This document shows positions 32,494 through 62,102 of a stretch of 64,000 nucleotides of DNA, in pieces. The first letter of the stretch is position 1. Every line of letters begins with the position of its first letter. The DNA comes from Leucoraja ocellata. Lineage: Eukaryota. The stretch is taken from assembly GCA_036785375.1 (NCBI GenBank), contig JAWMAR010000788.1, forward strand, positions 124,001 to 188,000, written 5' to 3'. The notes beneath the pieces are model-generated. The model ran no database searches, was not told the DNA's origin, and saw only the letters and a list, made by a program, of their open reading frames with translations. Position numbers and translations under genes: made by a program.

Positions 32494-32498
32494 AAAAA
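32494..32498 (-). terminator. Pol III oligo-T terminator of the tRNA-Arg gene
   Basis: TTTTT on the - strand, 5 nt downstream of the tRNA 3' end. Confidence 0.85.
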
Positions 32499-32503
32499 GA
32501 ACT

Positions 32504-32588
32504 CGACTCCGCCGGGACTCGAACCCGGAACCTTTGAATCGCTTCACCCACTAGAAGTCCAATGCGCTATCCATTGCGCCACGGAGCC
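32504..32588 (-). tRNA. TRR-TCT: tRNA-Arg(TCT) with a 12-nt intron (32540-32551, GTGGGTGAAGCG)
   Basis: Reverse complement reads GGCTCCGTGGCGCAATGGATAGCGCATTGGACTTCTA[intron]ATTCAAAGGTTCCGGGTTCGAGTCCCGGCGGAGTCG; intact cloverleaf, A and B boxes, anticodon at 32553-55, intron after position 37. Confidence 0.97.
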
Positions 32589-32799
32589 ACCTGTTGGATC
32601 CAAGCTGGAAATAGTCTATTCATTCTCGCATCAGAAGCGTACGATAATCACCTCGTATTTTCTGTCGATTCTCATCGCCTTGTAACGGTGTCGTCTAAAT
32701 GTTTCGACTCCCGGAGGTTCGGAGTCGTGAACGAGCTTCCATTTCACTTATTAGATATAGTTTAATTGGGTTTTTTTTTAATGTTAGTGTGAGAGTGTG

Positions 32800-33010
32800 T
32801 GTGAGGCCGGAGTGTGGTGAAGCGCTGGCTGCGGCCGCTAGGAGCTCCTCGGCCCGGCTCCGTGTGACGTGAAGTGTGGGGGCGGGAGCGCGCTCGAGCC
32901 GTTGCCATTGGCAACACCCTCGGGGCCAACGGCCGCGGCCGTTCGATCTTTGGTTCGAATGTCGGCGCGCGCCGCGACCGTTGCGTTCAAAATGGCGGCG
33001 GCAGCGCCTC
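32800..33010 (+). promoter_or_regulatory. CpG island / probable Pol II promoter divergent from the tRNA
   Basis: The only strongly GC- and CpG-rich tract in the window; TGACGT (CRE half-site) 32865-70, GC-box 32878-87, RFX X-box GTTGCCATTGGCAAC 32901-15, YY1 CAAAATGGCGGC 32988-99. Confidence 0.75.
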
Positions 33011-33582
33011 AGATCCAGATTCAACTTTAATTGTCAGTGTACAGTACAGAGACAACGAAATGTAGTTAGCATCTCCCTGGAAGAGCAACATAGAATATGA
33101 TTTCAATAAATAAATCTATTTACATGCATACAGTCATAGTGTTTTTCCTGTGGGAGGAGTGTCGGGGGGTTTGCAGTCACCGAGGTACGTTGTTGAGTAG
33201 TGTGACAGCCGCAGGGAAGAAGCTGTTCCTGGACCTGCTGGTCCGGCAACAGAGAGACCTGTAGCGCCTCCCGGATGGTAGGAGGGTAAACAGTCCATGG
33301 TTGGGGTGAGAGCATGCTGAGCACCCTTCGCAGACAAGGCTTGCTTTGGACAGACTCAATGGAGGGGAGTGAGGAACCGGTGATGCGTTGGGCAATTTTC
33401 ACCACCCTCTGCAATGCTTTCCGGTCGGAGACAGAACAGTTGCCATACCATACTGTGATACAGTTGGTAAGGATGCTCTCGATGGTGCAGCGGTAGAAGT
33501 TCACCAGGATCTGAGGAGACAGATGGACCTTCTTCAGTCTCCTCAGGAAGAAGAGACGCTGGTGAGCCTTCTTGACCAGAGT
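33011..33582 (-). mobile_element. 5'-truncated Rex1/Babar-type LINE (RT C-terminus and 3'UTR) with a 6-bp TSD CGCCTC
   Basis: ORF reads TLVKKAHQRLFFLRRLKK...FYRCTIESILTNCITVWYG...LPSGRRYRS; TCTGAA-like tail at the left end; CGCCTC at 33005-10 and 33583-88. Confidence 0.88.
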
Positions 33583-33619
33583 CGCCTCGCCCCGCAAGCT
33601 TAAACCTGAGTGAGTCCAT

Positions 33620-34328
33620 GCACATAACGCAGCAGCAGCGGACAAGCGAGGGCCCACTGATAGTTCTGTCTACTCCAACCGCAGATGTAGATTCTGAAAG
33701 AACTTCAGAGGGTGACGAACCTTTCGTCCACAGTGATAATACAACATCATAACCAGAACCACAACCAGAGCCTGATATCTCAGATAACATGCAAAATCCA
33801 ACACAGACAGATAGATGCATGTCTAGTAGAATTACAAGAACACCTAAAAGATTTGATAATTTTGTTATTTATAAGTGTAACATATAGTTGGCACAAAGCA
33901 ATATGTCCTTTATTTGGTTTGTCACACCACGTTTAAGGAAGATGAGTGGAATGTAACAATCATAAGTACCAAGTTTAGATAAACGGTTTACTTTATGCAT
34001 GGTTATTACTGCCTGGTAAAGTATGCGGGGTATAATGGTTTAAACATCAGGTCTTGTTTGCATAATCAAAGAAATTTTATAAGTTTTGGTGTTACAGTAA
34101 GGATTTTGTGTAAAAGATCATAAAGAGTGAAGATTGTGTTATCTGCGTCCAAGTTAAAGGGGGAGGAGTGTTGTGTATGAGACTATGAATGGTATAATTG
34201 AATGACTTGCACAATTGTACGCATGTGCAGTGAGACTCAAGATGGCGATTTCAATACAACAAGCATGTTAAATTACTGGTGTGTTCCGAGTCTTATTTTA
34301 AATCAGATTCCAGCACCAATATATCACA
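33620..34328 (+). mobile_element. Gypsy-like LTR retrotransposon 3' remnant: integrase tail, PPT and 160-bp LTR (34169-34328)
   Basis: Frame ends SRITRTPKRFDNFV...stop at 33887 (typical Gypsy Pol C-terminus); PPT AAAGGGGGAGGAG at 34156-68 is followed directly by TGTTG, and the LTR ends ...ATCACA. Confidence 0.65.
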
Positions 34329-36135
34329 TTATTCATTCATTATTTTCAGCAACTGGACTAATCACTGCTTAAATAGCTGGGGAGTGGGAACTGAACCCAC
34401 GTCAACCATCTGCTGGAAAGTTGGATGGGCCAAATGGCCTTCTTCCATGAGCAGGAAGGAACTACAGATGCTGGTTTACACTGAAGATAGATGCAAGATG
34501 CTGGCGTAATTCAGCTGGCCAGGCAACATCTGGAGTGAGGGAATGGGTGAAGTTTTGGGAAGGGTCTCGACCCGATACATCACCCATTCCTTCTCTCCAG
34601 AGATGCTGTCGGGCTTCTTCCATGATGGAGAGGTCTCTGATTCCAAATTGTTAGTGAAAATGTTTTGTTCTTTCCAATTGGTATGTTGGAATGCTTTGGT
34701 CATCCAGATCTGACAATGCCACTGTAAGAATTATTATTATCACCAGTTTGCTTGCCCGAATCGGAATGATGAGGAGACACAAGAGAATGCAGACAATTGA
34801 AAAGTATAGCACAGGAACAGGCCCACGATGTCTGTGCCGATCATAATGCCAAGATAAACTAATCTCACCTGCCTCCACATGATCCATAACCCTCCACTCT
34901 TTGCATATCCATGTACCTATATAAAAGCCTCTTAAACATTTTACCATCTCTCCTCAGTGCACTAATCACCCACTGGCCCCAGTCTCACCTCTTTCCCATT
35001 CCTCATTTTGCACAGGTTATCTTTGCCCATCGAAATCTGACAATGCCATTATAAGATGTCACCGGTGTATGTCCGAGTTAGAAGGATAAGATGCACAGGG
35101 GACGAGATGCTTCAACTTCACCTTCACCTGTCCAGAGTCCACCAATCACTCACATTCCCCAGTCATCTTAAACTCATGTTCACTAGACTCCTCTGCCTCT
35201 TTTAAAAATATATTGTCGATTAAATCTATGCCCCCTCAAAATGTTATAAACCTCCTTAAGGTCACCACTCAACCTCCTACATTCCAACTAGAGTAACTCC
35301 AGCCTCTCCATTCTCTCCTGATATCTTCAGCCCTCCATTCCAGTCAACATCTTAATTACCAAACACAAAGTACTGGACAGTCTTAGCGGATCACTCAGCA
35401 TCTGGGGAGGGAATGGATAGGTGATTATTCGAATTGAGACCCTTCAGTCTGAAGAAGGGTCCCCACCTGTCCGTTCCCTCCCCAAATGCTGCCTGGCCTG
35501 CTGAGTTCCTACAGCCATAGATACAGTTCCTACAGCCTTTGTGTTTTGCCTGAAATTCCAGCTTCTGTAATTTCTTATCAACAATTGATGAGTCTCGTCT
35601 TCACACCCTATATGGCTACCACATTCAATATATTTTGTATAAAATTACAAGTATAACAAGTATAACAAATATTCTCGCTGATTTGGATGGAGGAAGGGAA
35701 TTATTCCAGATATCCTGCTCCTATAGATATTCCTCATTCAACATCACTGCAACAGAATGTCTAATCATGATCATATTGCTGCTTGTGGAAGCTTGCTGTG
35801 TGCAAATTGAATAGCTTTTCTTCCTTCAGCTGGGTGTAGTGTAGAGGGCTCTGACCAGTTGCTATGGCAAAATATAACAATAAAATAATCAAACCTGTAT
35901 AGAAGTGTAAATAATGTAGGGAGGGGGTGGTGTTCATACTTGACAAAAAACAACAACGCTATGAAGATTTCTGAACCCATTGCTCGATTCACATAAGATT
36001 GCAGCTCCAAGGATTGCGGCTCCAAGGATGCCAATCTGATTTCTAGGTGTATTATGTTAAATTTACTCCCACTGCACAATATGGCACACAAACATGCTAC
36101 ATTTTTCATGCTATAAGAAAGCATAGATTTCAGAA

Positions 36136-36165
36136 TGCAGGTGAAATGCTTCCAGCAGAGGGTGC
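36136..36165 (+). promoter_or_regulatory. Putative CTCF site with upstream motif
   Basis: Core CCAGCAGAGGGTGC (36152-65) with TGCAG 11 nt upstream. Confidence 0.5.
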
Positions 36166-37469
36166 ACGTAACCAAAAGAACTTTCCAGAAGCTTCAGCAT
36201 TACAGTCGCTAATCGGAAGCCAATGTGAGAACAGAATACCATTGCAAGGGGACAGAGTTCCCAGGGAGAAAGGAAATGGATTTCAGTTGGCATAGTAACA
36301 ATCACATTATCTGATTAACCTCGTCTGGGAAACAGGTAGAGACCGACATGATTTATGACTGATGATCAAACTCCAGTATTATGTTGATAGAGCTTAAGCC
36401 TTTGAGAGTGACGAACCATTGACTCATTCATATATGGAGGCCATTTGGCCCATTGTATCTATGCTACTTCTTTGAAAGGACTGTCCAATGAACCCAACTG
36501 TCCCACAACTCTGAAATTGATCTTCATTTATGAAAACGGCAAATCTAGCTGAAGGAGTCAACAGGATGGCTCGAGTCAAATCAAAGAGGCCCAAGAAAGG
36601 AGAGGCTTGTCCGCACCAACCCTAGATCGCTGTCATCCTTCCAGTAGCCCAGAGGGAAATGAGTAAATGCTAGTAGTCACCTGATTAATACAAACAGGAA
36701 GTGCAGCCTGACTGGTTATCCCCTGTTGCGGCTTGGGTTTTGCTTCAAGGCAAAGTACATGGCAACTAACTGGGGAGAAAGGATTGGGAGAAAGAACAAA
36801 ATTGAAAGATATAATTGGATACTCGCAAAGGCACAATGGATCAATTCCTTCTATGCCATTTGAATTTATGATTCACCATATGCCGTTTACATTCAATTAA
36901 TATAATAGTATAATCCACTCATTAAATGCCTCAAACCATTCCAGTACTTTAAACTACAGCTAGTGAAGATTTAGTTAACTGATGTTGGTAGTGGCCACTT
37001 GCCAATCTGCGCCTCTCTATTGTTTGAATGTACTGAAGAAGTTAAACATTGATGTGAAAATTATCATTGGGACTTAACTTGCATCATCTGACACTTGATT
37101 TCATTACTTTATTGGGCCCACTAACTGTTTCAGGCAGCAATCATAGTTGTTTGAAAACAAGTAATTATCTCAGGTCAATAGGTGCCTAGGGAGTCTTTCA
37201 AGCTCAAAGGATGATTTGCTCCCACTCTAGTTTTGGATAATCGAAAGAGGCTAACATGTTTACGCAAGAATGCTGATTCTTCCACAAATGGAGCAAAAAG
37301 AAACGTGGGTCTGTATTTTAGGATAGTGTACACTTCCGCTGCTATTTGCGCATTGCCTCTGTGTGCTCCTGTCACTGAAACTCAAGGGTCTCAGTCCCAT
37401 CCCAAATACTGCTCAATTTTAAACAGGGTTTCCCTTCGGTGATTGTGAATGTTACATTTCTTCTAGGTG

Positions 37470-37830
37470 GCTTTAAGAACATCTTTGAAGCACTTTCTCT
37501 GCCTTCCTAGAAATGTCTGCCTGTTACTGAACTCAAGGTAGAATGATTGCTTTTGAAAGACTGGTGACAGACAGATCCACAATGCATCTCATTCAAGGAA
37601 GGTTGTTGAATATGACCAGGCCTCGCTGCTGAGTACATTGAGTTCATCAATCTTGCTTCACCTCTCCTGCCAAATGACTTGCAGGATTTTGTGGACATAA
37701 TAATGGCACTAAGGTCTCTACTGTCGGTTGGGATTGACCCAGCAATGATCACTACTGATCCATAGGTCAGGAGCTTGAGATTTTGGCCGTTGTTCATCCT
37801 TCATCAGCCAAGGGATGACTGTTGCACTGC
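37470..37830 (-). mobile_element. Degraded RTE-clade LINE C-terminal remnant
   Basis: Antisense sequence resembles the RTE motif L.K.I.Y.EL..G.R..G.QRK.FKD.LK. Confidence 0.5.
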
Positions 37831-39235
37831 AGGTGATGAATTTTGTTATCAATTTCTTCACCATGAAAAAGAAATGTAACACTCAAAATGGAGGAGCATT
37901 TTGTATGATTGGTTTATTGTATTTTAACATTGTTTTTTACCTGCTTTTAACTATTTATACTGTTCCATCAGGGACTGGATTGTTTTTAGTGTTATTATGT
38001 GTGAAACGTTTTAAATTTCATGTGCGATGCTCCGCTATTCACTGGGAAACGTCTTTTCATTTTGCACTGTACAACTGTTGCTTGCAAGATGACAATAAAG
38101 GTTGATTGATTGATTGATAATCCAAAGAACCATGTGCTTTGATGAAGGTCCTGGGATAAGAACATTAATTTGCAGTTTCAAGCTACAATTGGTTATTGTA
38201 GGGAGCAGTGATTATAATGTAGCAAAGCAAGATTAGTAGTGGACCTTTGTCTTCTGGATGTTTTGTGTGAGAACCATCTTTTCACTAAATTAAATGAGTC
38301 AATGGTGTGGAGCATGTTTTCTAAAGCCGGACTATCTTGACTTTGAAGAAGAGGCAACAGAAATTGAACAGTTTTCTGCTCCAAATGTAGACCAACACTC
38401 CAGTTGGAGGTGAAGTGCAGTGTTTCAGTGAGGAAGTTTGATAGATCACAGATTATATATGATTGGGCGGCAGATGTTGGATCCAATGGCTTTTGGAAGA
38501 CAGCCACTTCTGAAAGGAATCATCCATATTTGGGCGGTGTTAAATGTTTATACAGTATCAAAAAGGATTTTACGGTTGGAGCTGTCTTCTGCATTTTTCA
38601 TTGATTTTTCACATGCAGCAATATGTTCATAGGATTTCTTCATGGAAATTTGCTATCATAACTCCTATGCTGATATGAGGGGACAGATGAGGAGGATCCT
38701 TGTGATGACTTTCCCTGCATCAGATAACTGGAAGACCCCACTATAATTACCGTAATCAGACCTCCATTCTTGAGGAACACCAGGTTACAGATACTATAAT
38801 CAGAAGCCAGAAAAAGGAGGGAAACTGGAAGAAATTAGCGGGTCAGGCAGCATCTGTGGAGGGAAATAGATAGTCGGTGTTTTGGATCGAGGCTTTTCAT
38901 CAAGGCAGTGGCTATGATCATAGCATCTCTAAGGCTCTCTTGCATTCTCTCATCATCTTATATGTGGGAAATGAGATCATGAATTAAAAGTACTTCTCCA
39001 CCATGTTTTAATACATCTCAATGGGATTTCCCCGCTCCAGAGGCCTTGTACAACAAAAGATTCCCACATTTGTCATTCAGAAGATAGATTTAGGAATGTC
39101 TTCCCCAGACTGGATGAAGAAGCAAATTAATTGCTTGGAGATGGCAAAAGCAAACTCAGTTGAAATTATATAAAATAACATGTGAATTTGTATCACTATA
39201 AATGACAGGTGAAGTAACAGACAAAGATATTTGTT

Positions 39236-39361
39236 TAAAAAGGAACTGCAGATGCTGGAACAATTGAAGGTAGACAAAAATGCTGGAGAAACACAGCGGG
39301 TGAGGCAGCATCTATGGAGCAAAGGAATGGGTGACGTTTCAGGTCGAGGCCCTTCTTCAGA
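39236..39361 (-). mobile_element. Penelope-derived short element with hammerhead motif (39330-39361) and about 15-bp TSD
   Basis: AAGGAACTGCAGATGCTGG end; reverse complement CTGAAGAAGGGCCTCGACCTGAAACGTC; ACAAAGATATTT(T)GTT on both flanks. Confidence 0.75.
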
Positions 39362-42112
39362 ACAAAGATATTTTGTTCATTGTTCATGATTCTGCTATTG
39401 GTATGAATTGTAGTTAAGAGTCCAACTGAAATATGAGTCCTAAAGTACTTAATCTTGCATTATCTACAGTTCATACCAATACTAGAATGATGAACAATGA
39501 ACAAAATATCGTTGTCAAAATTTAGCAAGATTAAGTACTTTAGGACTCGTATCTCATTGTGGATTTGGTAGTTTTTGGATAATGGGCCTGCTGTCAAACA
39601 TTATTACCCACTCAGTTTCTACTTTGCACTTTGAAGTTACATCTTTGTGAATTCTCTAAAGTCCACAATCATAACACATATTCTTCGTTCTATTTATTAT
39701 AACTACCTCACCATTATAAATCGAGAAACAATATTAATGTTCATTAATATTAAATAAAATAATATTTTGTATAATAGGCATGAATGGATCTGGAAGGCCA
39801 AATTACCTATTTTGGGGCTACTCATTCTTTGCACTATTTTGCAAATTAGGCTTCCGGCTTGAATAACCATCCTCTAATTGAAGGAGCACTTATGCCAAAT
39901 AGAGCTCACCCACCTGCTGCTAATTTACATCAAATCAGCAGTTGAACCTAATGCTCTGTTCATTTGTTATGGTTCTTCAGCCACTGTCTAGAGCAGCAAA
40001 AAGATTTGAAAAGCCTTTAATTACCTGTTGACATTTTGTTTGAAACAACCAAGGATAAATGTGTGTTGCTTCACCAAATGAAACAGTCAAATGTTTTTCC
40101 TTCCTAGACTCAGGTCTCCGACTCCCTTGATGATTCAGTGCAATAGAGTGAAGTTTTGATGATATTTACTTTATGACTTCCTTAGTTTGTACTCACATTT
40201 ATTGGCCTCTGGCTTCCAATCCCGTTCAAATAACTTTTCACACTCCAGGCTAGTACCTTTCTCTTAATAACTATTGAGGAAGTGAAAAAGTTAAACAATC
40301 CCTAACAAAAGCTCAGGATAATGTCCAGAATATATCCAGGAGGTCCTGCAAGCTACAGTCAAAGTCTTTAACTCTAGTCAGGCACATTTTAACCTTGATT
40401 GGCTTATTCCTACCTCGTTCAGACATGCCTGTTTGATCATTTGGCTGTTTTCATGGAATTCCTTTGAGGCAGCTCTGAATGGTATGTCGGTAATGTATCG
40501 ACAAGTCTACACTGAACAAATGCCTAAAAAATAACTCACTTACATTGTTGATCAGCAAAGCAACTGATTTCAGCCCCGGACAAAAAGTATCTTACTGGGA
40601 AACAGTCCATTTGTTGATAGACTCAAAATGCTGAAGTAACTCAGCAGGACATGCAGCATCTCTGGATAGAAGAAATGGGTAACGTTTTGGGTCTCAATCC
40701 AAAACATCACCCATTCCATCTATCCAGAAATGCAACCTGCCCCGCTGAGTTACTCCAGCATTTTGTGTCTATCATCGATGTAAACCAGCATCTGAGTTCC
40801 TTCCTAAACAGTTTTCCACTTAACTTGTTGCAATCATCAATGTTGTTGCTTAAACCAAATAAAAATGAAACATGTTATTTTGCTAGGTGGAAAGTGCCTA
40901 GACATTTTCCCTATGAGATTTAAACTCCTTGCGCTATCCTTCAGGGGATAAGATAGTATTGTAGTTAACTTGGAATCACAAGGAACTGCAGATGCTGGAA
41001 TCTTGAGCAAAACGCAAAGTGCTGTAGTAACAGGTCAGGCAGTATCTGTGGACAGAAATGGATAGTGACATTTTGAGTTGGGATCCTTCTCCAAAGATCC
41101 TGAATCTGACCCTGATAATAAATGGTCAGTGACACCTATATTCTCTTGCATAAATACTTTGTATTTGAAATGTGACATCATTCCATGACCCCATCTGCTT
41201 TCAGTTGGGACAAATGATCCAAGGGCACTATTTTTCCTTTGTTTTCCAACCAATACTTTCCCCTTCAAAATAAGTTTAATCATATTTGTGGGAGCTTGCT
41301 ATCCATAATGTGACTACCGAGATGACCTAATTATGAAATTAACCATTAATTAAAAAAATCTTGGTTGACAGTAAACATTTTTGGGACGATGTGACTATAA
41401 ATGCAAATTGTTCAATTTTGTGGAAAAAAATTACTCAATAATTGTCAGCTATTCTTCAATACATCCATAAGCTTCTTTCAAAATATTTTATTTTACGTTT
41501 CTGGATTTAAAAAAAAACTTGAACTATGAATTCAACATTAATTTTTCAAAGCACATTATTATGTAATTGTTGTTGTCGGTCCAAAGCCAAGATCCAGTTG
41601 TCCAGGCACCATGATAACATCACAGTTCCAACAGTAGAGATTTTGAGGGGTTAGGACTACAATAACACATACCCCATTGAGATGTCGCTGGTGCAGGCAT
41701 TCCAAAACTGTCTAACTGGGAGATGTCTGCTTGGCTGTGTTTCGAACACATTAACAACAAAATGAAAATTTAAAAAATACCTACATCCCCTATTAATTAC
41801 TTGCTGGATCACAACAATATTGATTATGTTAAGTTAAAGGAATGCTTGTATTACAAGGATAGGAGCATTTTACCATCCAATGAATTCTAATAACCACTTC
41901 CAAGGAAATGCAAGCACAATTTACATAATTTCTTCTTAGCAATTAGCCCTTGCGGCCCTAATAATATTCTGATGAATCCGGGATGCACTCTGTTAACATA
42001 ACTTTATTTTAGTTTGATACTCAGCAGAGTACAGAGTATTCCAAATATAAGGTAGATACAAAATGCTGGAGTAACTCAGCGGGACAGGCAGCATCCCTGG
42101 GGAGAAGGAATG

Positions 42113-42145
42113 GATGACGTTTCGGGTCGAGACCCATCTTCAGTC
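42113..42145 (-). ncRNA. Minimal type-I hammerhead ribozyme motif in a Penelope-derived unit (unit about 42050-42147)
   Basis: Reverse complement reads GA-CTGAAGA-T-GGGTCTCGACCC-GAAA-CG-TC-ATC: CUGANGA core, stem II, GAAA, palindromic ACGU loop III, GUC triplet. Confidence 0.65.
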
Positions 42146-45100
42146 TGATCAGAGAGAGTGAGTTTGCTGAAAATGTAGAATTTGATAATGAATCCAAAGG
42201 CAGCAATACAGAAGATGGGGTATTGTTCCCAAGTTTACATTATAACAGGGCCGGAGGCCACAATAGGGCAGAGTGGGAGTGGGGTAGAGAATTGAAGTGT
42301 GAGGGAGAAAAGAAAACTCAGTGACACCGCTGTGGCGACTGCAGGTATTCTGCAAAGCAATCACCATATCTGAGGTTTGTGTAAAGGAAACCACCTTGAG
42401 AGTACTGAATGGAATATATTACCTTAGAGGAAGTGCAAGTGGATCATTCTTTCAACTGCAGGGAATGTTTGAATGGTAGAAAGAGGAGAGATAAAAGAAC
42501 AGGTGTTGCACCTGGTGCAGTTGTGTGGGAAAGTGCCAAAGCAACCAGGGGCTGAGTACTATTACACCAAAACCAGTGTCCAGGTGCTAGACTAATATTT
42601 GTATTTGAATCGGCAGGATTTGGAATACCAGAAAATATTTGTCTCTTTGTATGATACATCACGTCTCGGTGTTATTAAATAACTATGAACATCCAACTTA
42701 GGCCGATGTTTGTGTTCAGTGAGTCAAAGACGGTCTAATCACAGCTGGTAAGTAAAGCTATCAAACCAAGCAATAATGGTGTATGAAAAGCAAAGGAAGA
42801 TGGATGCTGGAAATCTAAATGTGGAAGAGAAAAGAGCGTGATGAAATACCTGGCAAGATAGGCTGCATCTGTAGAGAGAGTAAACTTCACACAAAGGGTG
42901 GTGGGTGTATGGAACAAGCTGCTAGACGAGGTAGTTGAGGCAGGGACTATCCCAACGTTTAAGAAACAGACAGGTACATGGATAGGACAGGTTTGGAGGG
43001 ATATGGACATGGAGGGATATGGCAGGTGGGACTAGTGTAGCTGACACATGTTGGCCGGTGGGGAAGTTGGACCTGTTTCCAAGCTGTAACACTCTATGAC
43101 TCTCTCTCAGGAGAGAGAATAAACTGGGTACACGTTACAAATAGATAACCTTTCATTACATAATCTGATAAAGTCTTGAAATGGTGACTATCTGACATTG
43201 CTGAATTCAGTGATGAATCCTGAGGGCTTTACTGTTCCAGGTCAAAAGATCAGACATTGTTTCTGAAGCATATTTTACTGGAAGAGGGTACAAAACTAAA
43301 GACAGAGGGGGCAATGGGGGAGTGGGATGGGGAATTAAAGTGACAGGCAACTGGAAGCTCAAGGTCACCTTTGCAGATTAGATAAAGCTGTGTTTCATAA
43401 AGTGGTTCGATTTCTCCAAATAGAAGAGACTGCATTGTGTACACTAAATGCAATACACTAGAATGAGAGTACATCAACCATGGATTCACCTGAATTCAAA
43501 CTGGATCGCTAGATAGCGAGAAGGGGAGAGCTAAAAGGGTAGGTTGCAAGGGAAGTTTTGGTGGAGATGGAAGAATGAAGCTGGAAGTTGCAAAATGGTC
43601 CCTTTAGATTGTTGAAAGATGAGAGAATGGGAAGATGTATCCAGTGGTGGCTTTCAGTAGCATAAATAATCGAGGAAATGTGTTAAATATAGAGACTGGT
43701 GGGTGGAAGTGGGAGGACAAAGAGATTCCTGTATTTTTGTTGCGTGGGAGGAGAGGAGGTTAAGAACAGAATTGTGGGAAATGGAACAAATGTGATTGAG
43801 AGCCCTGATAATTATGAAGAGGAGTCACAGCACTATTGACAATTAAGAAGAAAGGAAAACATCATTATTTTTAATTGCTGTCTAGCTGCATGAGGAGAGA
43901 CGTGTAATGCCATAGCAATACTCTGGGTGATGTGTGTTTTTGCTGCCTATGCCAACTTGGAATTAAAACATTGACCATAAATTTGTCAAATTATAATATA
44001 AAACTCAACTGGTTAATCTCAGTTCAACCTGCCCCCTGTGAGAAGTGTTGATATCAGATTTCACTCTTGCACCATTTCTCCTCTCTGACCCAACAAGCCC
44101 CTCAACTGTGTCAAACAGAAGTAAGAGTTCCTTCAACACATCGTACAAGCAAGGAAGTGTAGATGCTAGTTTATAGACTACTGAGGAAAAGTCCCGACCC
44201 GAAATGTCACCTATGTTCTGCAGAGATGCTGCCTGACTCTTTGAGTTACTACAGCACTGTATGTCCTTTCCTTCAATACAAAACTGAATGCTTTAAGAAA
44301 AAGGTGACTCACACCACCTACTCAAAGATAAATATAGTTTGCCAATAAATGTTAGGTTATTCAAGCAGTGATCATCCAGCCTTTGCCATTTGCCATAATG
44401 ATAAAAATGAATCCTAATAAAGTACTTAACAGCTTGAAAGAAAAAAAGGATTTTGATGAAATGGTGCAACAGTATGAGTGAATGAAGCTGTCATCTCTTC
44501 ATCAAGCAAATAGTTCCAGCATCAATTAATTGAATTCTGCAGCATAATTACTTTGAATGCTTGTTACAGACATCATTGGTTCAATGGAAACGTGCAATAG
44601 TGGGCTGAAATCATCTGTAAATTTTTCTGGAATGAATGAAGTTTGCAGAACATTCATTTGTTCATTAGTCCAACTCCCACTTTTTGAAAAATATTACTTA
44701 AATTGCATCCTGCATCCTTCCAAACAATGAATATCGCTCATAAAACTATAGAACAACTTATTTTTGACAATTGTCTTAAATCTGTGTGTTTTTTGATTAA
44801 CAGTCCATCTTACCGAAGCAGCTTTTCCCTAACTAAATGAAGTCCCTCACATTTTGGATTCCTCTATTGAATCTTCTCTTTTCCTCTTCTTTGATTTACT
44901 TCCCCAATCTCTTCACTTTATGCTCACTGGTATCTTGAAGTAGATGATGCAGAGTGAATTGCATAAAGAAAATTCAGCCCGGTATCAGAAATGTTGTATT
45001 CCCTCTGCATGAATTACACAGAATTGGTCATGCATCAAAGACTATTTGGTCAGTGCTGGTGTGTATGACCTTTTACAAGCCTTCTCCACCTCTCTTCATC

Positions 45101-50000: not shown

Positions 50001-50202
50001 CCCTGACTGGTGTGCCATCCTAGGATGGGCCTTGAACCAATATCCTTATATGGAGAGAGGCAAGATTGCTACCCTTGGGCCATGCCAGACAACATCAGAT
50101 AAGATTGCCATTGGGGTTAGCACTTTATATTCTGCGTGAGAGATAAAACTTAGTTAACACTGTTACAAATGAGCCATACTGTTAAACAACGCTGATTGAT
50201 CT

Positions 50203-51223: not shown

Positions 51224-51431
51224 TAACTCTTTCTCCAGAGATGCTGCCTGACCCGCTAAGTTACTCCAGCATTTTGTGTCTATCTTGGCTATAAATCATC
51301 ATCTGTAGTTCCTCCCTGCATGGTGCATCAGTGATAATGGATATTCTGATTTAGCGATCTAATTATTAGTACAAGATGTAACTTGGCACTAATCTCATTT
51401 TTTTTTTTCAGTGGGCTACTGATAACTTATA

Positions 51432-51539
51432 ATGGCCTCTGTGAAAGATCCACTAACAAAGGAGCTGGAGGAGGAACTAAAACTGAATACCGATGATATC
51501 CGTAGCCATGCCTGGTTCCATGGTCCTATCCCACGGCAG
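51432..51539 (+). CDS. SH2D3A: NSP-family (BCAR3-like/SH2D3A) first coding exon, MASVKDPLTKELEEELKLNTDDIRSHAWFHGPIPRQ; the exon itself spans 51412-51539
   Basis: Poly-T tract and AG acceptor at 51410-11; ATG at 51432 preceded by in-frame TGA and TAA; the motif KELEEEL.L...D.RSHAW.HG.IPRQ matches the pre-SH2 segment of BCAR3/SH2D3C; GT donor at 51540 (phase 0). Paralog assignment is inferred. Confidence 0.85.
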
Positions 51540-52835: not shown

Positions 52836-53281
52836 GAAGCCGAAGTTCTAATAGAGAGAGATGGAGATTTCCTCATCCGAGAGTCTCGCTCCAGTCCAGG
52901 AGACTTTGTACTGAGCTGCAGCTGGAAACATGAGCCTATCCACTTCAAGATCATCCGTGTGGTCCTCCGACGTAAGGAGTCCTACACCCGAGTGTTGTAT
53001 CAGTTTGAACAGGAGAGCTTCGATAACCTCCCAGCACTGGTACGATTCTACGTGGGAAACCGCAGACCGATTTCAGAGGAAAGTGGAGCAATAATCTTTC
53101 ATCCAATAAACCGCATTGTACCCTTAAGATGCATTGAGGAAAAACACAGATCGGCAGTGGGTCAGAGATTACAACACAGAGAACAGGCAGCCAGAGGCAC
53201 TGATCAAAATAAAAGATTCAGTTTAAATCTATCCGGAGGAATATCGTTGGACCAGCTTGAAGTGGATAGCAATCTTCTGAG
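52836..53281 (+). CDS. SH2D3A: NSP-family gene exon encoding the SH2 domain (EAEVLIERDGDFLIRES...YVGNRRPISEESGAIIFHPINR...SNLLR)
   Basis: ttcag acceptor ends at 52835; 446-nt open exon with the GDFLIRES SH2 signature and strong similarity to the BCAR3 SH2 exon; AG|gtaatt donor (phase 2). Confidence 0.93.
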
Positions 53282-54648
53282 GTAATTAATGATTTGGATT
53301 CATCAATCAGTTAAGCTCCCCAATGGCTTAATGTCAAGTTTAATAGATTATAAAGTGTAATCCATCATCTTCCATGCTCCATAAATATGGGTCATCAAAA
53401 CTCTTCTGATATATGCCAGCATTCACCATGTGCCATTCATTCACCGTTCCCTGAGCTCACTGACCTACATTGATTCCAGGTTTGTCTGCACTTAAATTTA
53501 GAAATCCTTGTTTTCATATCCTTCAGTGGTTTGGCCTCTTCCAATCACAACAATTTTCTCCATCCCGATCCAGTTTCCCAATTCTCAAACTTTCTGTGCT
53601 GGGAGGTTATCGAAGTTCTCCTGTTCAAACTGTGCCCTAAATTTCTCCAGCCAGCTATCTTTCTCTTCCCCTTTATACCTTAAAGCTTTTGGTGACATAA
53701 CTTGATTTCTCATTGAAAGTTTGGTTGATAACTCTCTGTAAAGTGCCTTGGGAATCTTTTAGTGTACTAATCCCAACAGAAGCTGGGACATCCCTTGAAA
53801 TCCACAGGGAAGGAAATAAATAAATCAGACAGAGATTTCTCTAGCAGGCAGTCTGATGATGGGGAAGAACAATATTAGGTTTGGCCATGAAGCTTGGATG
53901 GCTCTTTTCAATGAGGAAGCACAAGACTTCTGTAACAATCATGTGCACATGTTCATCCTTTAAATACATCCTATTTCCTTGTGAGGGTTACTATTGAACC
54001 GACTTCCACCAACTTTTCAAACAATTTATGCTCGATCAGAACTCACTGCAGAAAAATATTTTCACATTTATTCAAAAGTCTTCTCTGACACCCACTCCTC
54101 TGCCACTGGGAACTACTTCCCTTATTTACCCTATCAAAATTATTTGTGATTTTAAAAGCCTCAATCCAAATCTTGTCTTTGCTGGAGGAGGTATTATATG
54201 ATTAGGATTAATTATTAATTTTGCTCTTGTTGTCTCTCCTCACACTATCTGCATACTTGAGATAGCTGCAAACCTCCTTGTCGGCCAGAAAACGTTTGGT
54301 TGGAGCCCCATTGAACATTAATATCCAAGTTCCCAATGCAATACTAAGACAGCTGCATTGTATACATTGTGGTTTATTGTCAGTTGGTCTTCGAGTCCTC
54401 AGTAGTTACAGAAGAAATATGCTGAAATGGAGAAATAAATCAACTCTCACCAGAGTATGTAACTAATATGATTAATGTTTCCCACATTACAGCATTTCCA
54501 TCAATAGACTGTAGATTGTTTAAAGGTTATGAAAACACTATAGAAATGTATGTTCTTTAACTGCCAGTTGTATTTTACAATATCAATTTTTTGGTAAAGT
54601 GTAATCAGCAATGGCATTTCTATGTTTATCGGCATGTTTTTATGGCAG

Positions 54649-54743
54649 GAATAAGGACAAGAGTGGCAGCCATCCAAATATTCTGGACTGGATTGACAAA
54701 AGGCCATTGCAATCTGCCCAGTCTGACAGTTACCTTTCTGGAG
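54649..54743 (+). CDS. SH2D3A: NSP-family gene small exon NKDKSGSHPNILDWIDKRPLQSAQSDSYLSG (not visible in this frame in the ORF track)
   Basis: ggcag acceptor, 95 nt, GAG|gtgagt donor; enters in phase 2 and exits in phase 1, fitting both neighbouring exons; resembles BCAR3 NKEKSGSQPACLDH...QSESYL. Confidence 0.88.
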
Positions 54744-54805
54744 GTGAGTCCATTTAGAAATCTCTCTGGCACTAGATGTATTCTTATCCAACTTGTAGAT
54801 TTTCC

Positions 54806-54984
54806 CTCGAAGATAGACACAAAATACTGGAGAAACTCAGCGGGACAGGCAGTTGAGAAGAACGGTCTCAACTTGAAACATCATCCATTCCTTCTCTCCA
54901 GAGATGCTGCCTGTCCTGCTGAATTACTCCAGCATTTTGTGTCTATCTTTAGTGTATAACCAGCATCTGCAGTTCCTTCCTACA
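54806..54984. mobile_element. Penelope-derived fold-back element about 60 nt downstream of exon 54649-54743
   Basis: Inverted arms; TSD TTGTAGATTTT(T)CC at 54793-805 and 54985-98. Confidence 0.75.
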
Positions 54985-55879
54985 TTGTAGATTTTTCCTG
55001 CTGCATTATTATTTCAACTTTTGAAATAATATTTCTAGACGGTAATATTTTATGCAGCTGCACCATATTCTCTTTGATCTGGGGACTGAGTGTTGTTGTG
55101 GGATAAAAGTGGTAAATTATGAGCATGGATTGTTTATACTGACTTTGTGTTCCCTGAAGTATAAATCAAAAGAGATGATTTTAATTGATGTATCTAAGAT
55201 AATGAAAGGACTTGTTGAACTATTTCCTCCAGTGGGAGAATCCAAAACAAGGAACCTTAAATTTAGAACTAAGCCATTCAGGGTTGATGCAAGGAAATAC
55301 TTCTTCACTCAAATAATTGTTCCCCAATAGATAGACACAAAGAGCTGGAGTAACTCAGGAGAGAAGGAAAGGGTGACGTTTCGGGTTGAGACCCTTCGTG
55401 AAGAGTTGTGTGTTGTCAAGCTAGAGGAAGGAATGTAGGTGGAAGAGGAGGGGAGAAATGGGCGCAAGTCCAGGTGGTAGTAAAGAAGAGGGGTGACCCG
55501 AGGATTCATGCTTAAGATGTTTGGGAAAGAATGACAAGAGATTCAAGGCAAACAATTTTCTACATTAAATACCTCTGAAATGACAGCGGAAGCAGAGGTG
55601 AGCTTCACAAGAAAATTGGATGAATATTCAAAGGGGAAAATAATTACTACATATGGGGCAGGATTGTGAAAATGCAACTCATTGGGTAGTTAATTCATGG
55701 AGTCAGCATGGGTTCAAATGGCTTCTAAATGTCCTTATCCTTTTATAATCATGTTGCCTATCTTTGTGGTTAGTGTAAGACAGATGTGGTTATAAATTGG
55801 TGAAGCAGGTAAACGTTATGACTGTATTCGATGTTTCATCCGTTTAACAAGCTGTTATTTCTCAGTTACCTTTTCATTT

Positions 55880-56720
55880 AAGCTCTTTGACAAGTTCCCA
55901 CATGATAGGCTTGTTGAGAAAGTTAGTTCACGGTGTTTACAAACTGGATCAAAGATTGTTTTGGTGGTGGGAATAGAGGGTAGTGGTGAAGGGTTATTTT
56001 TCTGACCATAAGTCTGTAACAATGGTGTATGAGTGCTGGGACCTTTGTTGTTTGACATACGTAAGATGCATAAGAATGTCTGTCGTCTGATAAGTACGTT
56101 TGCCGATGACACAAAGATTGGTGGACTTGTAGATAGCGAGGATGTTTGCAGAAAGGTGCAGAGAGACATAGATCAGCTGAAAAGTTGGGCAAAATGTGGC
56201 AGATGGAACATGAGCCAGACAAGTGTAAGATAATGCATTTTGCCTCGACTACTACTGGTTGGTAAACACCAAGATGACAATGCACAGAGGGAGTTTGAAT
56301 TGCAAATTCATATTCTCTGAAAATGGCGAAACAGATGAATAAGATAGTATAAATCTCAATTTAGTTTGCTCGCCTTCATGGCCAGGGGTAGTCAAGTCAA
56401 GTCAAGTATGAGTATGAGTTGGGACATCATATTACAGTGATGCAAGATACATTCTGAAGAAGGGTCTCGACCCAAAACATCACCCACTCCTTCTCTCCAG
56501 AGATGCTGCCTGTCCCGCTGAGTTACTCCAGCTTTTTATGTCGTAACAGTGATACAAGGTATTGGCTAGTCCACACTCGCAGTTCTGGTCGCACCTGAAA
56601 GAATGCAAATAAAATTTACCGGGAATGTTATCCAAAATGAAGGTCTCTAGTTAGAAGGAGAGATTGAATAGGCTAGGGTTGTTTTTATTAGACCCCAGGA
56701 GGCTAAAGAGGGACCGTATG
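55880..56720 (+). mobile_element. Degraded CR1 RT fragment
   Basis: FDKVPH, SVLGPLLF, FADDTKIGG motifs with frameshifts. Confidence 0.8.
56447..56545 (+). mobile_element. Penelope-derived short element nested in a CR1
   Basis: CTGAAGAAGGGTCTCGACCCAAAACATC; TSD ACAGTGAT(G/A)CAAG at 56434-46 and 56546-58. Confidence 0.72.
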
Positions 56721-56796
56721 AAAATGAAAGGACAAGTACATTATGGGATTAACATAATTCACCATTTATATTAACACTTGTGTTTCTCTGCCACAG

Positions 56797-57425
56797 GACC
56801 CAGGGACTTCATTCAAGCAAATGGGACGCAGAAAATCATTCGCTCTTCGTCTGTAATGTATAGAGCAGGGAGTGATCCATTAATCAACCCGAAAGTGGGC
56901 TTAAGACGCCTTGGTTCCCAGTCCAGTATTGGATCGAGAGGTTCTGAAGGACAGTTGTACTCCAAGGCACCTCCAAAGCCATTCAGAGTTCCATCTGTCA
57001 TGGTCACAGACACCCCACACGATCCAAACTTGGATGGAAATGTCTATAGTGAGCTGGTGCCCAATATGCAAATACAAAGTCAGACACCCTCACCGCCAAA
57101 GAGTCATGTGGAGAGATTACGAGCTGCAGAACGATCGCAGGTCAGAACCCGAATGACAGACACCAATTTTTGCCTCCTGGATTTAGATATAAACTCAATT
57201 TCCATGAAGGCATGCCAGGAAGAAGTTGTGAAGGATGATGGCTGGTCATTCACTCGGCCAGAACTGGAAGCTACAAGCTCATTTAAACTTGACACCTTTA
57301 CATCAATCTTACTTCCCTTTGACAACAGATCTCTAGATCCGAATGTGCTTAAGCGTCTCAAAGAAATATTTCATGAAAATGATGCAAAGACTATTGCACA
57401 GCATATTCTGAAAGAGGATTGTCAG
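56797..57425 (+). CDS. SH2D3A: NSP-family gene exon: Pro/Ser-rich linker and start of the RasGEF-like (Cas-binding) domain
   Basis: ccacag acceptor, 629 nt, CAG|gtacat donor. Motifs RAGSDP, RGSEGQLYSKAPPKP.R.PS, YSELVP, FTRP, NRSLDPNVL and DCQ fit SH2D3A better than BCAR3. Confidence 0.9.
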
Positions 57426-58399
57426 GTACATAAGTGTTCGTGATCAGCCGGTTTATTATATGACCTTGCTCTTAGATTTATTTTGCATTGCTTTCACCTT
57501 TAAATAATTTATTTGAATAGGTAAACGGTAAATAACTGGCTCTGCGTTTAAACCTCTAATAGAGAAAGCAGTGAGAAGTGCCACATGAGGCCATTTGGCC
57601 CATTGGGACCATGCAGAGTAGCAGAAATTCTCACTGGAACTGTCTCGCCATGGCTCCCCCATCAATACTCCTTTACTTGTATCCTTATCACTCACCTGCA
57701 CAAAGGGATAATTTACCGTGACAGAACAGAGCTAAGATTTAGATGCTTTAAGGAGGTCATAAATATAACTAAACTTCGTGGTCTGTCTGGAGGCATAGAC
57801 TTGAACTAGAGGCCATATAAATATAATAAATCCAATAATGAAATCAGGATTACCTGTCAAACAGAAAATGGTTAAGTTATAGAAAAGTATGTAGAGACAG
57901 AACCATACAGAAACAACATTGAAACCGGCCCCTCAGCTCATTTGCCACACCCATTTTTACACAAATCGTACCCTAACCCATTTTATTCTCCCCATATTCC
58001 CATCAGATCAACCCCCACCACTCACTTGGACACTAGATGCAGTTTACACTGGAATAATAACCCATGCAGTCCTACTACTAACTGCACCACCCCCATTACA
58101 GCAGTAGGCCATTCATCTCCTAGAGTTTGTGCTAGCAATCCAACCAGTCCCATCCCCCTGGCCTTCAAATTACTTTTAATCTGCCTATCCAATCCCCTTT
58201 GTAAAATAACCCAAATTGACTTTGTTTCACGACCCCACGTGCAAGTTTCTTCCAGTTACACAAAAAAACATATTTCCCCTTGAACATTTGCCCAGAACAT
58301 TAAATTTGTTTCTGGTCCCTGAAGACAGCTTCTCTCTATTTACCCAATCTAAACCAGTGTTGATCTTGTATACCGCTAGTGAATAAAAACTAAATAAAT

Positions 58400-59430
58400 A
58401 TGAGCAGGAATAAACCAAACAGCCCACAAGCCTTCACCACTACTCATTAAGATTATTGTTGATATTCTATCCATTTTCCACTACAGTCATTTCCTCTGTC
58501 ATTTCCGTGCCATTTTTCACTACTGTCCCCTAAAGTTCTGAAATCTGTAGACTAATGTCTTGAATGAACACAGTGGCTGATCCTCCACCGCCCTCTGTGT
58601 GAGAGAACTTCAAAGGTGAAGAAAGTTCCCACCTCACTTCAGTCCTAAACGGTCTACCCTTTATTTTAAAACTGTGCCACTGGTCCTGCACAGCTCGGGG
58701 GGGAAACCTGCCCTGCAGAAAGCTCGTCAAATCCTTGAAGAATGGCGAGTTATGATGGGATTTCTTATTTTTCTGTACACTGGTTAACACAATCCCAGCC
58801 TGCTCCATCTCTGTTCACTCACACTGCAAACCCTCTAAATCTGAAACCACTCAGGTGAATTCTCATTTCACTCTCTCAGTGGCAAATACATTCTTTCTTG
58901 GGTAAAGAGATCTAAACTATACCCCAGGTGCAGTCTTAGTTATAATGAGACTTCCATCCTTTTTTCCCCAATCATTTTGCAATAAAGCTAACATACATTT
59001 TGCCTTTTCAATTGCTTGCTGCATCTACCCAATGACCTGTGATCTGAACACCTAAGCACCTTTGATAATCAATGTTTTCCAGTCTCTCTCCACTTAACAA
59101 ATATTTCAGAGTTCTATTATACCTACCAAAGGATACTACAAGCGGCACACTTCCCACACTATATTCCAAAAGTATATTATCACCCACTTACTCAGCATAT
59201 CTCCTTCTCCTCTTCAAATCCTCTTTCTCCACGATTGCAATATTCAACCTAATCTATTATCAACACACTGATCCGGCTTATGAAAAACTGGGGGCCCAAG
59301 CAGCAACCCCTGCAGTACATCACTATCACAGCCGGCCAACCTGAGATCAATCCATTTATTTCCACTCTTTGCTTTTCATCCGAGTACAAAATCTCCATCT
59401 GTGTCCGTTCCTTACTTCCAATTCCATGTA
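58400..59430 (-). mobile_element. Old, degraded CR1-type LINE
   Basis: Antisense remnants of QGLLLGP and RGHSFKIKGRPFRTEVR motifs. Confidence 0.6.
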
Positions 59431-59450
59431 ATAATAATAATAATAATAAT
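59428..59450. repeat. (TAA)n microsatellite
   Basis: Direct reading. Confidence 0.85.
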
Positions 59451-59882
59451 ATCTTTTATTGTCATTGCACAGAGGTGCAATGAGATTTGGTATTTTATAT
59501 TTCTCTGCTGACCAACCTCCTGTGTGAAATTTATTTAGTGATAATGGAATTCTTCCATCCCATTATTCTCATGAGTTCCATTTCCTTCCTATTCTTGCTG
59601 CTGACATTTGCACATGAATCATTGTGAGGAAAGCCATAATGCTATATACATGTATATCAGTAGTGGTCTTCAGTGGCCCCATATACTCTGAAGGAAAAGT
59701 CTTGGTGTCCACAAACATTTGTCATTTGAATCTAGACTTCAATGTAAATGTTGAATGTTTGTGTGCGGTTACTTGCAGAATAGGTAAGCCATTACACCAG
59801 AAACTGAGGACTCCTTTGGAAACAAAGTAGGAGTAGGAGCAGCAAATTATTTTAAGCTCACAGTAAGATTGATGTGCTTTGG

Positions 59883-60057
59883 AATACACAAAGTACTGAA
59901 GTAACTCAGCGGGTCAGGCAGCATTTCTGAAGAACACTGATAGGTGAAGTTTTGGATCGGGATGCATTATATCCAGAGATGGTGCCTGACCCACTGAGTT
60001 AGTCCAGCACTTTGTTTCTTCTTTTGTAAGCCAGCATCTGCAGTTCCTTGTTTCTTC
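59883..60057. mobile_element. Penelope-derived fold-back element inserted in the 3' splice region of exon 60077
   Basis: Arms 59888-929 and 59974-60015; TSD ATGTGCTTTGG at 59872-82 and 60058-68. Confidence 0.75.
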
Positions 60058-60076
60058 ATGTGCTTTGGTCTTGTAG

Positions 60077-60192
60077 GTGGCTCGCATCATCAATGTGTCC
60101 GCAGAACAGAAGAAGATGATGGGCGTGAACTCAGGACTTGATCTGATTACGTTGCCTCATGGACACCAGCTGAGGATGGATCTCTTAGATAG
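60077..60192 (+). CDS. SH2D3A: NSP-family gene exon VARIINVSAEQKKMMGVNSGLDLITLPHGHQLRMDLLDR
   Basis: ttgtag acceptor, 116 nt, AG|gtaata donor; hallmark NSP motif MGV.SGL.L.TLPHG.QLR. Confidence 0.92.
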
Positions 60193-60409
60193 GTAATATA
60201 TAAGCAATACCAACAAAGCACTCAGTAACATTAGATACAGATTCTAATAGGTCTGAGTTTCTGTTGTGGACAATTGATAAAGAAACTATGACTGTTTTCT
60301 AAAACAAACAGAAACCAAAAGCAGCAGGTCAGACCACATCCGCTGAGATTATTGCAGATTAATGACTTTTTGTCCATAGATATCTTGCCACAAGAAATAG
60401 ATGCAATCC

Positions 60410-60975
60410 TGGATAAAGTGGATGTGGAGAGGATGTTTCTACAAGTGGGAAGAGTCTACGAACAGAGGCCAGAGCCTCTGAATAAAAGGTCTCTGTTCGT
60501 AAGGAGATGAGGAAGAATTTCTTCAGTCAGAGGGTGGTGAATCAGTCCAATTCAAAGCCACATAAAGGGCCTGTCCCACTTTCACGACCTAATTCACAAC
60601 CTTTTTTACTCATGGCCATTTTTCATCAGGCTAGAAAAATGCCTCGACCTAATTGATGCCACGAGTATCTACGACTAGCATCACGACCTGCCTACGACCT
60701 CGTGACGACCATGCTGGAGTATGAGTCAAGGGCAAACTCGGCAGAGGTCGTGAATTAGGTCTTGAAAGTGGGACAGGCCCTTAAGGCTGTGGAGGCCATG
60801 TCAATGGATATTTTTAAGTCGAAGATTGGTAGATTCCTGATTAGTTCGGGTATCAGGGGTTCTGGGGAGAAGGCAGAGGAATGGGATTAAGAGGGAAAGA
60901 TAGATCAGCCATGATTGAATGGCGGAGGAAACCTGATGGCCGAATGGCCTAATTCTGCTCCTATAATTTATGAAG
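60410..60975 (+). mobile_element. CR1 3' end (host of the MITE at 60566-60781)
   Basis: LDKVDVERMF...EMRKNFFSQRVV motif and 3'UTR. Confidence 0.8.
60566..60781. mobile_element. Second Harbinger-like MITE family (216 bp), nested in a CR1 3' end
   Basis: TIR AGGGCCTGTCCCACTTTCA...TGAAAGTGGGACAGGCCCT with an exact TAA TSD (60563-65, 60782-84); the host CR1 reads through once the insert is removed. Confidence 0.88.
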
Positions 60976-61021
60976 ATGAATTAAAATATTGTTATTAACC
61001 TTCGCCTATTGTTTTTTTCAG

Positions 61022-61193
61022 GCATCATTTAATAGCACTGGGTATTGCTGTGGACATCCTAGGTTGCACAGGAAGTGTTGGACAAAGATCGGCAGTGCTG
61101 CATAAAGTTGTCCAACTTGCAGTTGAGCTGAAAGATTCCATGGGAGATCTTTTTGCATTCTCAGCAGTGATGAAAGCATTGGAGCTGCCTCAG
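61022..61193 (+). CDS. SH2D3A: NSP-family gene exon HHLIALGIAVDILGCTGSVGQRSAVLHKVVQLAVELKDSMGDLFAFSAVMKALELPQ; further exons expected beyond the window
   Basis: tttttttcag acceptor, 172 nt, CAG|gtactt donor; near-identical to the BCAR3 RasGEF-like motif AVDILGCTG...ELKDSMGDL...MKALE.PQ. Confidence 0.92.
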
Positions 61194-62102
61194 GTACTTG
61201 GATGGGTACCTGTGTTTTTACTTTCTCATTTCCCACCTCTTGGGTTACTTTTAGTCTCTTTTCAATTCTAACTCCTCCGAGGACTTGAGAATCACAACAG
61301 AGCATAATCTGCATCCTTCATATGTTCAGCAGAGTTAAAAATTGAATGATTAGAGCATTTCACAGAACGAGGCCATAATCTCCACTGAGCCTAATCATGA
61401 TCTAATTAGCTTCCGCGTCCTACTTTTTTCCCCTAACCCTGAAAATGTTTCCTTCTCATGTGTATGCACGTCCTATTTGAATCTGCTTCCACCACCCTTT
61501 TTCAGCATCATAACAATTAAATGCAGAAAAAAATATATTATTTTCTCCTCATCTAATTCTGTTGCTATTTTCAAGTTCTTGAACCTCTGTTGGGTTTAGA
61601 TTGTTTCATTATTTGTAAGTCAGGGTGATTTAATGATACGGAATTCGATCAACTGCATTTGTAGCAGTCCCCCAAGTCCAAATTGGGCTGAGTCTCTTTT
61701 AATTTATTTTAACGTAATTGCAAGAAGCTAGAAAGCGGTGAAGACAGGCTTCCACAGGCAGCAAGAATTCAGAAATCACTGACTGAAAGGGCAGTGAAAG
61801 AAGTTTCATTCGTAACTTTCAGAGGGGAATTGGATGAATACTTAGAGGGGAGAAATTTGCTGGGCTGTGGAAAAACGAGAAGGGAGTGAGTCTAATTTCA
61901 CGGTTTTTCCAATGATCCAGCACAGGCATCATAATAAAACCAAGTCTCTGCCTTGCTTAACTCCGGTATAATCCTGTGTGCCTGGTAAATTCCTGGTGGA
62001 CTTTAGTAATGTAACTGCGCAGAGGTAACAGAATAAACCTGTAGTCTATTATACCACAACGTGAGCAATGCCCTGCACTTACACATCAACAATTGAAAGG
62101 TG

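Follow-up and report, generated by a model that had tools for sequence, protein, structure and literature searches.

A tRNA-Arg(TCT) gene divergent from SH2D3A in the skate Leucoraja ocellata: a very probable ohnolog of the BCAR3-linked copy and a candidate CTCF-type boundary

Syntenic 'core' tRNAs and tDNA insulators are both already known (PMC4981973, PMC6961574, PMC7567086), the 'core' orthologs being active loci (PMC6961574, PMC4981973). In active tRNA genes, the 5' flank is as a rule divergent and evolves faster than neutral DNA (PMC6961574), and tRNA genes have been treated as breakpoints in yeast (PMC2675101). The closest single gene to the one analysed here is human/mouse Arg-TCT-1-1 (n-Tr22), which is active (PMC7567086, PMC6961574, PMC11065635), has an upstream CpG observed/expected ratio (O/E) of 0.95-0.97 in human and mouse (PMC6961574) and, judging from the third motif given in PMC7567086, has a human intron starting with GAGGC. 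By published coordinates, the human gene is 85 nt long (chr1:93847573-93847657, + strand), lone and CpG-rich upstream, in agreement with the length given for it in a sequence-only reading of the skate DNA. We take it to lie at the distal BCAR3 promoter, and we know of no tRNA at human SH2D3A. As for human BCAR3, the only coordinates found in the accessible parts of the sources were those of a gene-body enhancer interval.

The skate gene lies in a 64,000-nucleotide stretch (contig JAWMAR010000788.1 of assembly GCA_036785375.1, positions 124,001 to 188,000), hereafter the window, to which all positions without a contig name refer; the contig itself is called C788. It is an 85-nt tRNA-Arg(TCT) gene on the - strand (32504..32588; Rfam RF00005, 56.9 bits; ARAGORN (tct) i(39,12)), the sole Rfam match in the window and the sole tRNA found by ARAGORN with introns across the 264 kb of C788. 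A full cloverleaf, the TCT anticodon, an intron after position 37 and a T-run terminator (T5, 32494..32498, - strand) are all present. The 12-nt intron (32540..32551, - strand) is at the canonical position according to the sequence, ARAGORN and the alignment to the BCAR3-linked copy described below, and its letters are exactly those previously quoted. Rfam, ARAGORN and a CpG scan thus confirm the earlier description of a lone intron-containing gene with a CpG island, the one strong island of the window, some 200 bp away, and the haplotig (C268) carries the same arrangement of tRNA, island and gene at 98% identity. To the left of the tRNA, a simple codon-model scan predicted no coding exon over about 150 kb (C788:4001-156000), possibly a gene desert with the tRNA at its edge.

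Three NSP loci were found in this genome, namely the window gene on C788, BCAR3 on contig C2 and SH2D3C on contig C243. In a careful tree of 23 proteins, picked from 240 listed database matches and completed with the C-terminal exons of the C2 gene, these three genes fell into clades named after the database labels of their members, SH2D3A (support 100/100), BCAR3 (100/99) and SH2D3C (100/100), respectively. The SH2D3A clade also contains tetrapod, coelacanth and teleost SH2D3A, and forcing the four chondrichthyan proteins into BCAR3 was rejected by the AU test (p-AU 1.4e-9); a quick tree of 42 rows agrees with the careful one on the NSP grouping. The + strand NSP gene downstream of the island is thus SH2D3A and not BCAR3, as the sequence-only reading had proposed.

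The NSP protein (P0001, 684 aa) maps to nine coding exons on the + strand, six of which (about 522 of the 684 aa) are inside the window and the last three (exons 7-9) past its end. The first coding exon (51412..51539, acceptor 51410-51411) carries the ATG at 51432 and is followed by the SH2-domain exon (52836..53282; Pfam SH2, E 2e-12), 97% identical to that of Amblyraja radiata, and by exons 3-6 (54647..61199, approx. 54647-54745, 56784-57428, 60077-60193 and 61020-61199), placed by tblastn of P0001/P0002 and matching PDB 3t6a/3t6g. Since in-frame stops stand just after the acceptor and before the ATG, an upstream non-coding SH2D3A exon must exist. Teleost SH2D3A (P0017, P0043 and about 120 teleost proteins) has an N-terminal SAM domain and the listed shark proteins have none; no SAM exon was found near any of the three skate NSP genes, and the N-terminal extensions of shark NSP proteins did not map upstream in skate. 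BCAR3 and SH2D3C have in common an alternative first coding exon (C2:5271184-5271276 and C243:2805230-2805322, 55% identical), which was not detected at SH2D3A.

Skate BCAR3 has its own divergently oriented Arg-TCT gene (C2:5365781-5365866), at a distance of 5.7 kb from the stop of DNTTIP2. It is of the same isodecoder type as the window tRNA, to which it is 97% identical over 94 nt, and its 13-nt intron is related to the 12-nt one of the window. The order on C2 is DR1-like (+, 5.085 Mb), F-BAR (+, 5.188-5.232 Mb), BCAR3 (-, 5.248-5.323 Mb), tRNA (+, 5.3658 Mb) and DNTTIP2 (-, from 5.3715 Mb); read in reverse, C788 gives DR1-like (+), F-BAR (+), SH2D3A (-) and tRNA (+), i.e. the order and strands of the four-element block of C2. 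The DR1-like exons of the two contigs (C788:317281-317481 and C2:5084937-5085137) are 85% identical, and the tail-to-tail neighbour of SH2D3A on C788, with its FCH, HR1_TOCA and SH3 exons, is assigned at family level to CIP4/TRIP10. For a given gene, the probability of having one of the 17 Arg-TCT-like loci in divergent orientation no more than 45 kb away is about 1-2e-4. Among the Arg-TCT-1-type copies, only the SH2D3A- and BCAR3-linked ones have unique sequence on either side. Since both loci show the collinear four-element block with a divergent Arg-TCT gene, the tRNA was very likely retained at both paralogs.

As for the third paralog, SH2D3C also has a tail-to-tail F-BAR gene, with no DR1-like match on its contig, and this third F-BAR and NSP block on C243 fits a whole-genome duplication (WGD). 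No Arg-TCT gene or remnant was found within 194 kb upstream of SH2D3C. The scan for Arg-TCT genes upstream of NSP paralogs that had been suggested for a range of vertebrates was run in this skate genome, and was positive for SH2D3A and BCAR3 and negative for SH2D3C. The skate keeps two DR1/NC2-beta-like paralogs, where human presumably has a single DR1. VAV1 is taken to lie upstream of SH2D3A in human; no RhoGEF (VAV1) match was found on C788 or C268 among the 150 of 207 candidates scored.

Cartilaginous and bony fish occur in the BCAR3 clade as well as in the SH2D3A clade, and the split between the two therefore predates crown jawed vertebrates; retention at both duplicated loci would then span over 400 million years. 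The NSP tree is unrooted, with no cyclostome or invertebrate outgroup among the matches listed, so that it does not distinguish 1R from 2R; an outgroup search via the teleost SAM region returned teleosts only among the 120 of 158 matches listed. From this one genome and the published human data, the window tRNA is very probably an ohnolog of the BCAR3-linked copy, older than the BCAR3/SH2D3A split, and we infer that this split arose through a vertebrate genome duplication. The two-round framework is that of PMC7269912 and PMC10115646, whose accessible parts give no assignment for these loci. The proposal that the tRNA-promoter pairing is older than the 2R duplications and was kept on two ohnologous loci is therefore narrowed: the age holds for the BCAR3/SH2D3A split only, given the absence of Arg-TCT near SH2D3C and a tree without outgroup, and what was kept is the divergent tRNA in a collinear block, the BCAR3-linked tRNA of skate having no island beside it.

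The CpG island (32640..33010, + strand) is present in one copy per haplotype; nowhere else in the window does the O/E exceed 1. Over 32500-33012 the GC content is 0.56 and the CpG O/E 1.32, vs. a window-wide O/E of 0.34; the core (32790-33012) has a GC content of 0.69 and begins about 200 bp from the tRNA 5' end, head-to-head. Weaker stretches, at 14.3-14.7, 22.2, 51.0 and 51.7 kb, attain O/E values of 0.64-0.89. We take its motifs to be a GC box (32879), a TGACGT (32865), an X-box-like palindrome (32901) and a YY1-like motif (32989). The right end of the island is interrupted, in both haplotypes, by the 3' fragment of a LINE (33011..33582, - strand) with an apparent 6-bp target duplication (33005-33010 and 33583-33588); this antisense LINE sits in the likely first exon of SH2D3A, just after the YY1-like motif, which contains an ATG. 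It is followed by a unique host remnant (33583..33642, + strand), whose consensus splice donor at 33610 is a candidate for the end of SH2D3A exon 1, and, from 33643 on, by a repeat fragment (33643..34328, + strand) with at least 46 other genomic matches (best 40 of 844 candidates scored), presumably an LTR retrotransposon by its integrase-tail and LTR pattern.

Because the island is the sole unique CpG-rich stretch from 53 kb left of the window to the exon at 51412, because it is associated with a donor and because an upstream exon must exist, it is likely the first exon of SH2D3A and likely its promoter. None of the listed sequencing runs with the gene is recorded as RNA. RNA reads mapped to 32640-52100 (four of the 24 runs listed, with a species label differing from that of the best gene-bearing run) gave joints mostly in repeats (15 listed of 15 + 1877), which speak neither for nor against a link from the island to the exon at 51412, and one contig on the first coding exon of SH2D3A, starting at 51443. 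At the BCAR3-linked tRNA, the 420 bp upstream have a GC content of 0.41 and an O/E of 0.56, i.e. no island; one has to go about 26 kb to meet a promoter-like unique stretch and 43 kb to reach the first coding exon. The element common to both skate loci is the tRNA with 10 bp, not the promoter. CpG-rich flanks are, moreover, typical of any active tRNA gene (PMC6961574).

Three other assignments were considered and rejected. The GC-rich flank of the C2 tRNA is 3' of the gene and provides no island on the BCAR3 side; the 'island' at C2:5.3465 Mb is 57-80% repeat and was discarded as BCAR3 promoter; and the window island is not a NOTCH promoter left beside the NOTCH 3' half on C268, since the 150 kb of C788 contain no NOTCH 5' exons and these are on C2976. 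This NOTCH 3' half ends abruptly on C268 (913-932 kb) where C788 begins, with the 5' EGF exons on C2976 (34-53 kb), probably through a contig misjoin or a haplotype rearrangement. The left-side synteny drawn from C268 is unreliable.

The first four bases of the tRNA and the 10 bp of its 5' flank form a 14-bp CTCF-type motif (32585..32598, + strand), called by identity to the published human motif. The identity to the human Arg-TCT-1-1 motif is 14/14 in the window and 13/14 at skate BCAR3, and no other match with one mismatch or none occurs in the approximately 1.1 Mb of genomic regions scanned. Concerning the flank alone, the window has 10/10 bases in common with human Arg-TCT-1-1 and 9/10 with the skate BCAR3 copy, the similarity between the two skate flanks being random beyond -10. 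The other intron-containing Arg-TCT genes of skate (on C59 and C5264) and an intronless one (on C4891) have unrelated flanks. Dispersed copies start at a leader of 3-7 nt and cease to be similar past the terminator, most of them being fused there to repeats; they have only about four leader bases in common, which would place the Pol III start near -4. Bases -5 to -10, of which five of six are common to the SH2D3A- and BCAR3-linked loci, would then be constrained as DNA and not brought by retroposition.

In human, the CTCF motif spans the 5' end of Arg-TCT-1-1 and is ChIP-positive in four of six ENCODE lines (PMC7567086, Table 3 and S6). In the available parts of that source, the gene appears in Tables S2 and S6 only and is absent from the CTCF+cohesin list S5; the CTCF ChIP signal, present at 40% of group-1 tDNAs, can be non-specific at highly occupied ones. 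The flank of Arg-TCT-1-1 has a positive phyloP (0.37 in human, 0.73 in mouse; PMC6961574), and skate TAD borders have oriented CTCF sites (PMC10115646). As for the cis role previously imagined for the retained tRNA, an adjacent promoter island is not common to both loci, and the best cis candidate is this CTCF-type motif, which had escaped notice.

Five unspliced copies of the BCAR3-linked pre-tRNA are present on C2 (3.453, 5.165, 5.358, 6.33 and 10.70 Mb; L008, L006, L045, L010 and L009, respectively), each with different flanks and each fused to a different LINE/SINE end. They are 8 kb to 5.3 Mb from their source at C2:5365781, on a contig of 25.5 Mb representing 0.7% of the assembly, a clustering with P of about 1e-9 if random, which suggests that nascent pre-tRNA was captured by a LINE reverse transcriptase inserting nearby. 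One further degenerate copy is on C126, and a copy on C647 is allelic to L008. No convincing target-site duplication was found within 1.3 kb of nine retrocopy-like loci, and a low-threshold ARAGORN search of the contigs gave noise. An older decayed copy with the trailer of the window gene (C2410/C1054; L081, L082) lies between SH2-domain exons of a GRB2-family-like gene.

On C25, copies at 10.10 and 10.85 Mb (L004, L003) go back to one insertion, doubled as part of a larger inverted duplication. They are unspliced, carrying the intron and trailer of the window tRNA gene at 99% identity, and the window gene is therefore probably transcribed, presumably by Pol III; they also provide indirect evidence for its transcription in the germline or early embryo. 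The window gene has no repeat fused at its own 3' end; it is the source of these retrocopies and not a chimera.

The explanation favoured here is that one ancestral Arg-TCT gene was duplicated within the block giving SH2D3A and BCAR3, which would have produced the window copy and the BCAR3-linked copy. In this lone active tDNA, the leader region and the acceptor stem would spell a CTCF site; CTCF, with TFIIIC, would bind the 5' end of the skate tRNA, and the bound tDNA would mark the 5' edge of the NSP gene's domain and so resist loss or movement. As most of the conserved flank bases stand upstream of the presumed Pol III start, the constraint would act on DNA. The joint claim, an ohnolog kept in place as a CTCF-bound boundary, appears to us about evenly balanced between true and false, and the idea of the tRNA and its 5' flank as a CTCF boundary element predating a vertebrate WGD and kept at both loci is tentative, slightly more doubtful than credible. 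The boundary is weakened by the absence of human Arg-TCT-1-1 from list S5 and by the possible non-specificity of CTCF ChIP at busy tDNAs (PMC7567086, as available), and the ohnolog and boundary together by the lack of Arg-TCT near SH2D3C. Both ohnologs might instead have been kept for supply only, as a major Arg-TCT source in a low-copy family, with a flank serving Pol III initiation or leader processing and a position that is passive synteny in a slowly rearranging genome. This is possible, if rather doubtful: in the non-neuronal brain cells of mouse, Arg-TCT-1-1 provides more than 50% of the Arg-TCT pool, with poor compensation by family members (PMC11065635), intact-looking Arg-TCT source loci number at least about five in this skate genome, skate genomes keep the ancestral gene order (PMC10115646), the ten conserved bases adjoin the start site and could serve initiation, and the absence of a promoter island at skate BCAR3 is counted for supply only. 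Yet the flanks of active tRNA genes usually change more quickly than neutral sequence (PMC6961574), those of the other skate Arg-TCT genes are unrelated, and the conserved bases reach past the presumed start and match a ChIP-supported CTCF motif.

That a module of tRNA and Pol II promoter (through promoter opening or Pol III/Pol II coupling) was kept on both ohnologs is unlikely, since at skate BCAR3 the upstream O/E of 0.56 and the distances of 26 and 43 kb to promoter-like stretch and first coding exon speak against it, as does the frequency of CpG-rich flanks at active tRNA genes (PMC6961574). It would nevertheless account for the window island, which carries Pol II-type motifs and a donor site and is 200 bp away from the tRNA, and such an island may be ancestral and lost at skate BCAR3, because human/mouse Arg-TCT-1-1 is CpG-rich upstream. 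Least probable by far is a gain of the tRNA at SH2D3A only once the duplication had taken place, whether through retroposition, conversion or chance, even though tRNA genes turn over fast (PMC4981973), this genome makes pre-tRNA retrocopies of this very gene and the two skate introns begin alike, which could be homogenisation. Such a late arrival is hard to reconcile with a tRNA placed and oriented alike in the two copies of a four-element block (p about 1e-4), with a shared untranscribed flank whose bases -5 to -10 are beyond the reach of a retrocopy, with a window flank that matches human at 10/10 bases but the skate BCAR3 copy at 9/10, and with the absence of a fused repeat at the window tRNA 3' end.

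No description of vertebrate tRNA ohnologs or of this locus was found in the literature outside subscription journals. A tRNA paralog pair on both products of an early vertebrate duplication, whose untranscribed flank is conserved, would be a dated example of a long-lived tRNA locus, in contrast to the prevailing view that tRNA genes are rapidly replaced and that divergence is fastest in the 5' flanks of active genes. It also supplies a candidate, defined to 14 bp, for the debated role of tDNAs beyond translation, as insulators; if true, this would be a testable tDNA-CTCF element older than jawed vertebrates, with a motif partly encoded by the tRNA acceptor stem. Hi-C and ATAC data exist for skate (PMC10115646), and so does a mouse deleted for the Arg-TCT-1-1 gene (PMC11065635).

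Compared with known systems, the dispersed unspliced copies fused to LINE/SINE ends are explained by Pol III RNA/LINE template-switch chimeras (U6-LINE; pre-tRNA retropseudogenes, PMC4476161), whereas the local clustering of copies round the BCAR3 source is not described in the accessible parts of that source. Human/mouse Arg-TCT-1-1 resembles the window gene in being 85 nt long, lone, CpG-rich upstream and endowed with the same 14-bp CTCF motif across its 5' end, but its true ortholog in skate is the C2 copy beside BCAR3, the window gene being a second, paralogous copy beside SH2D3A. Like the window, the tDNA insulators of human chr17 at ALOXE3/PER1 (Raab et al., cited in PMC7567086) have tRNA genes near Pol II genes with CTCF/TFIIIC-type features; they are clusters with tested insulator activity, whereas the window has a single gene and a predicted motif, made of flank and acceptor stem and common to the paralogs. 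The 'core' syntenic tRNA orthologs (PMC6961574, PMC4981973) are likewise long-lived, position-conserved loci, described within placental mammals, primates and flies, whereas the window very probably holds one member of a paralog pair older than crown jawed vertebrates, with a 5' flank conserved against their rule.
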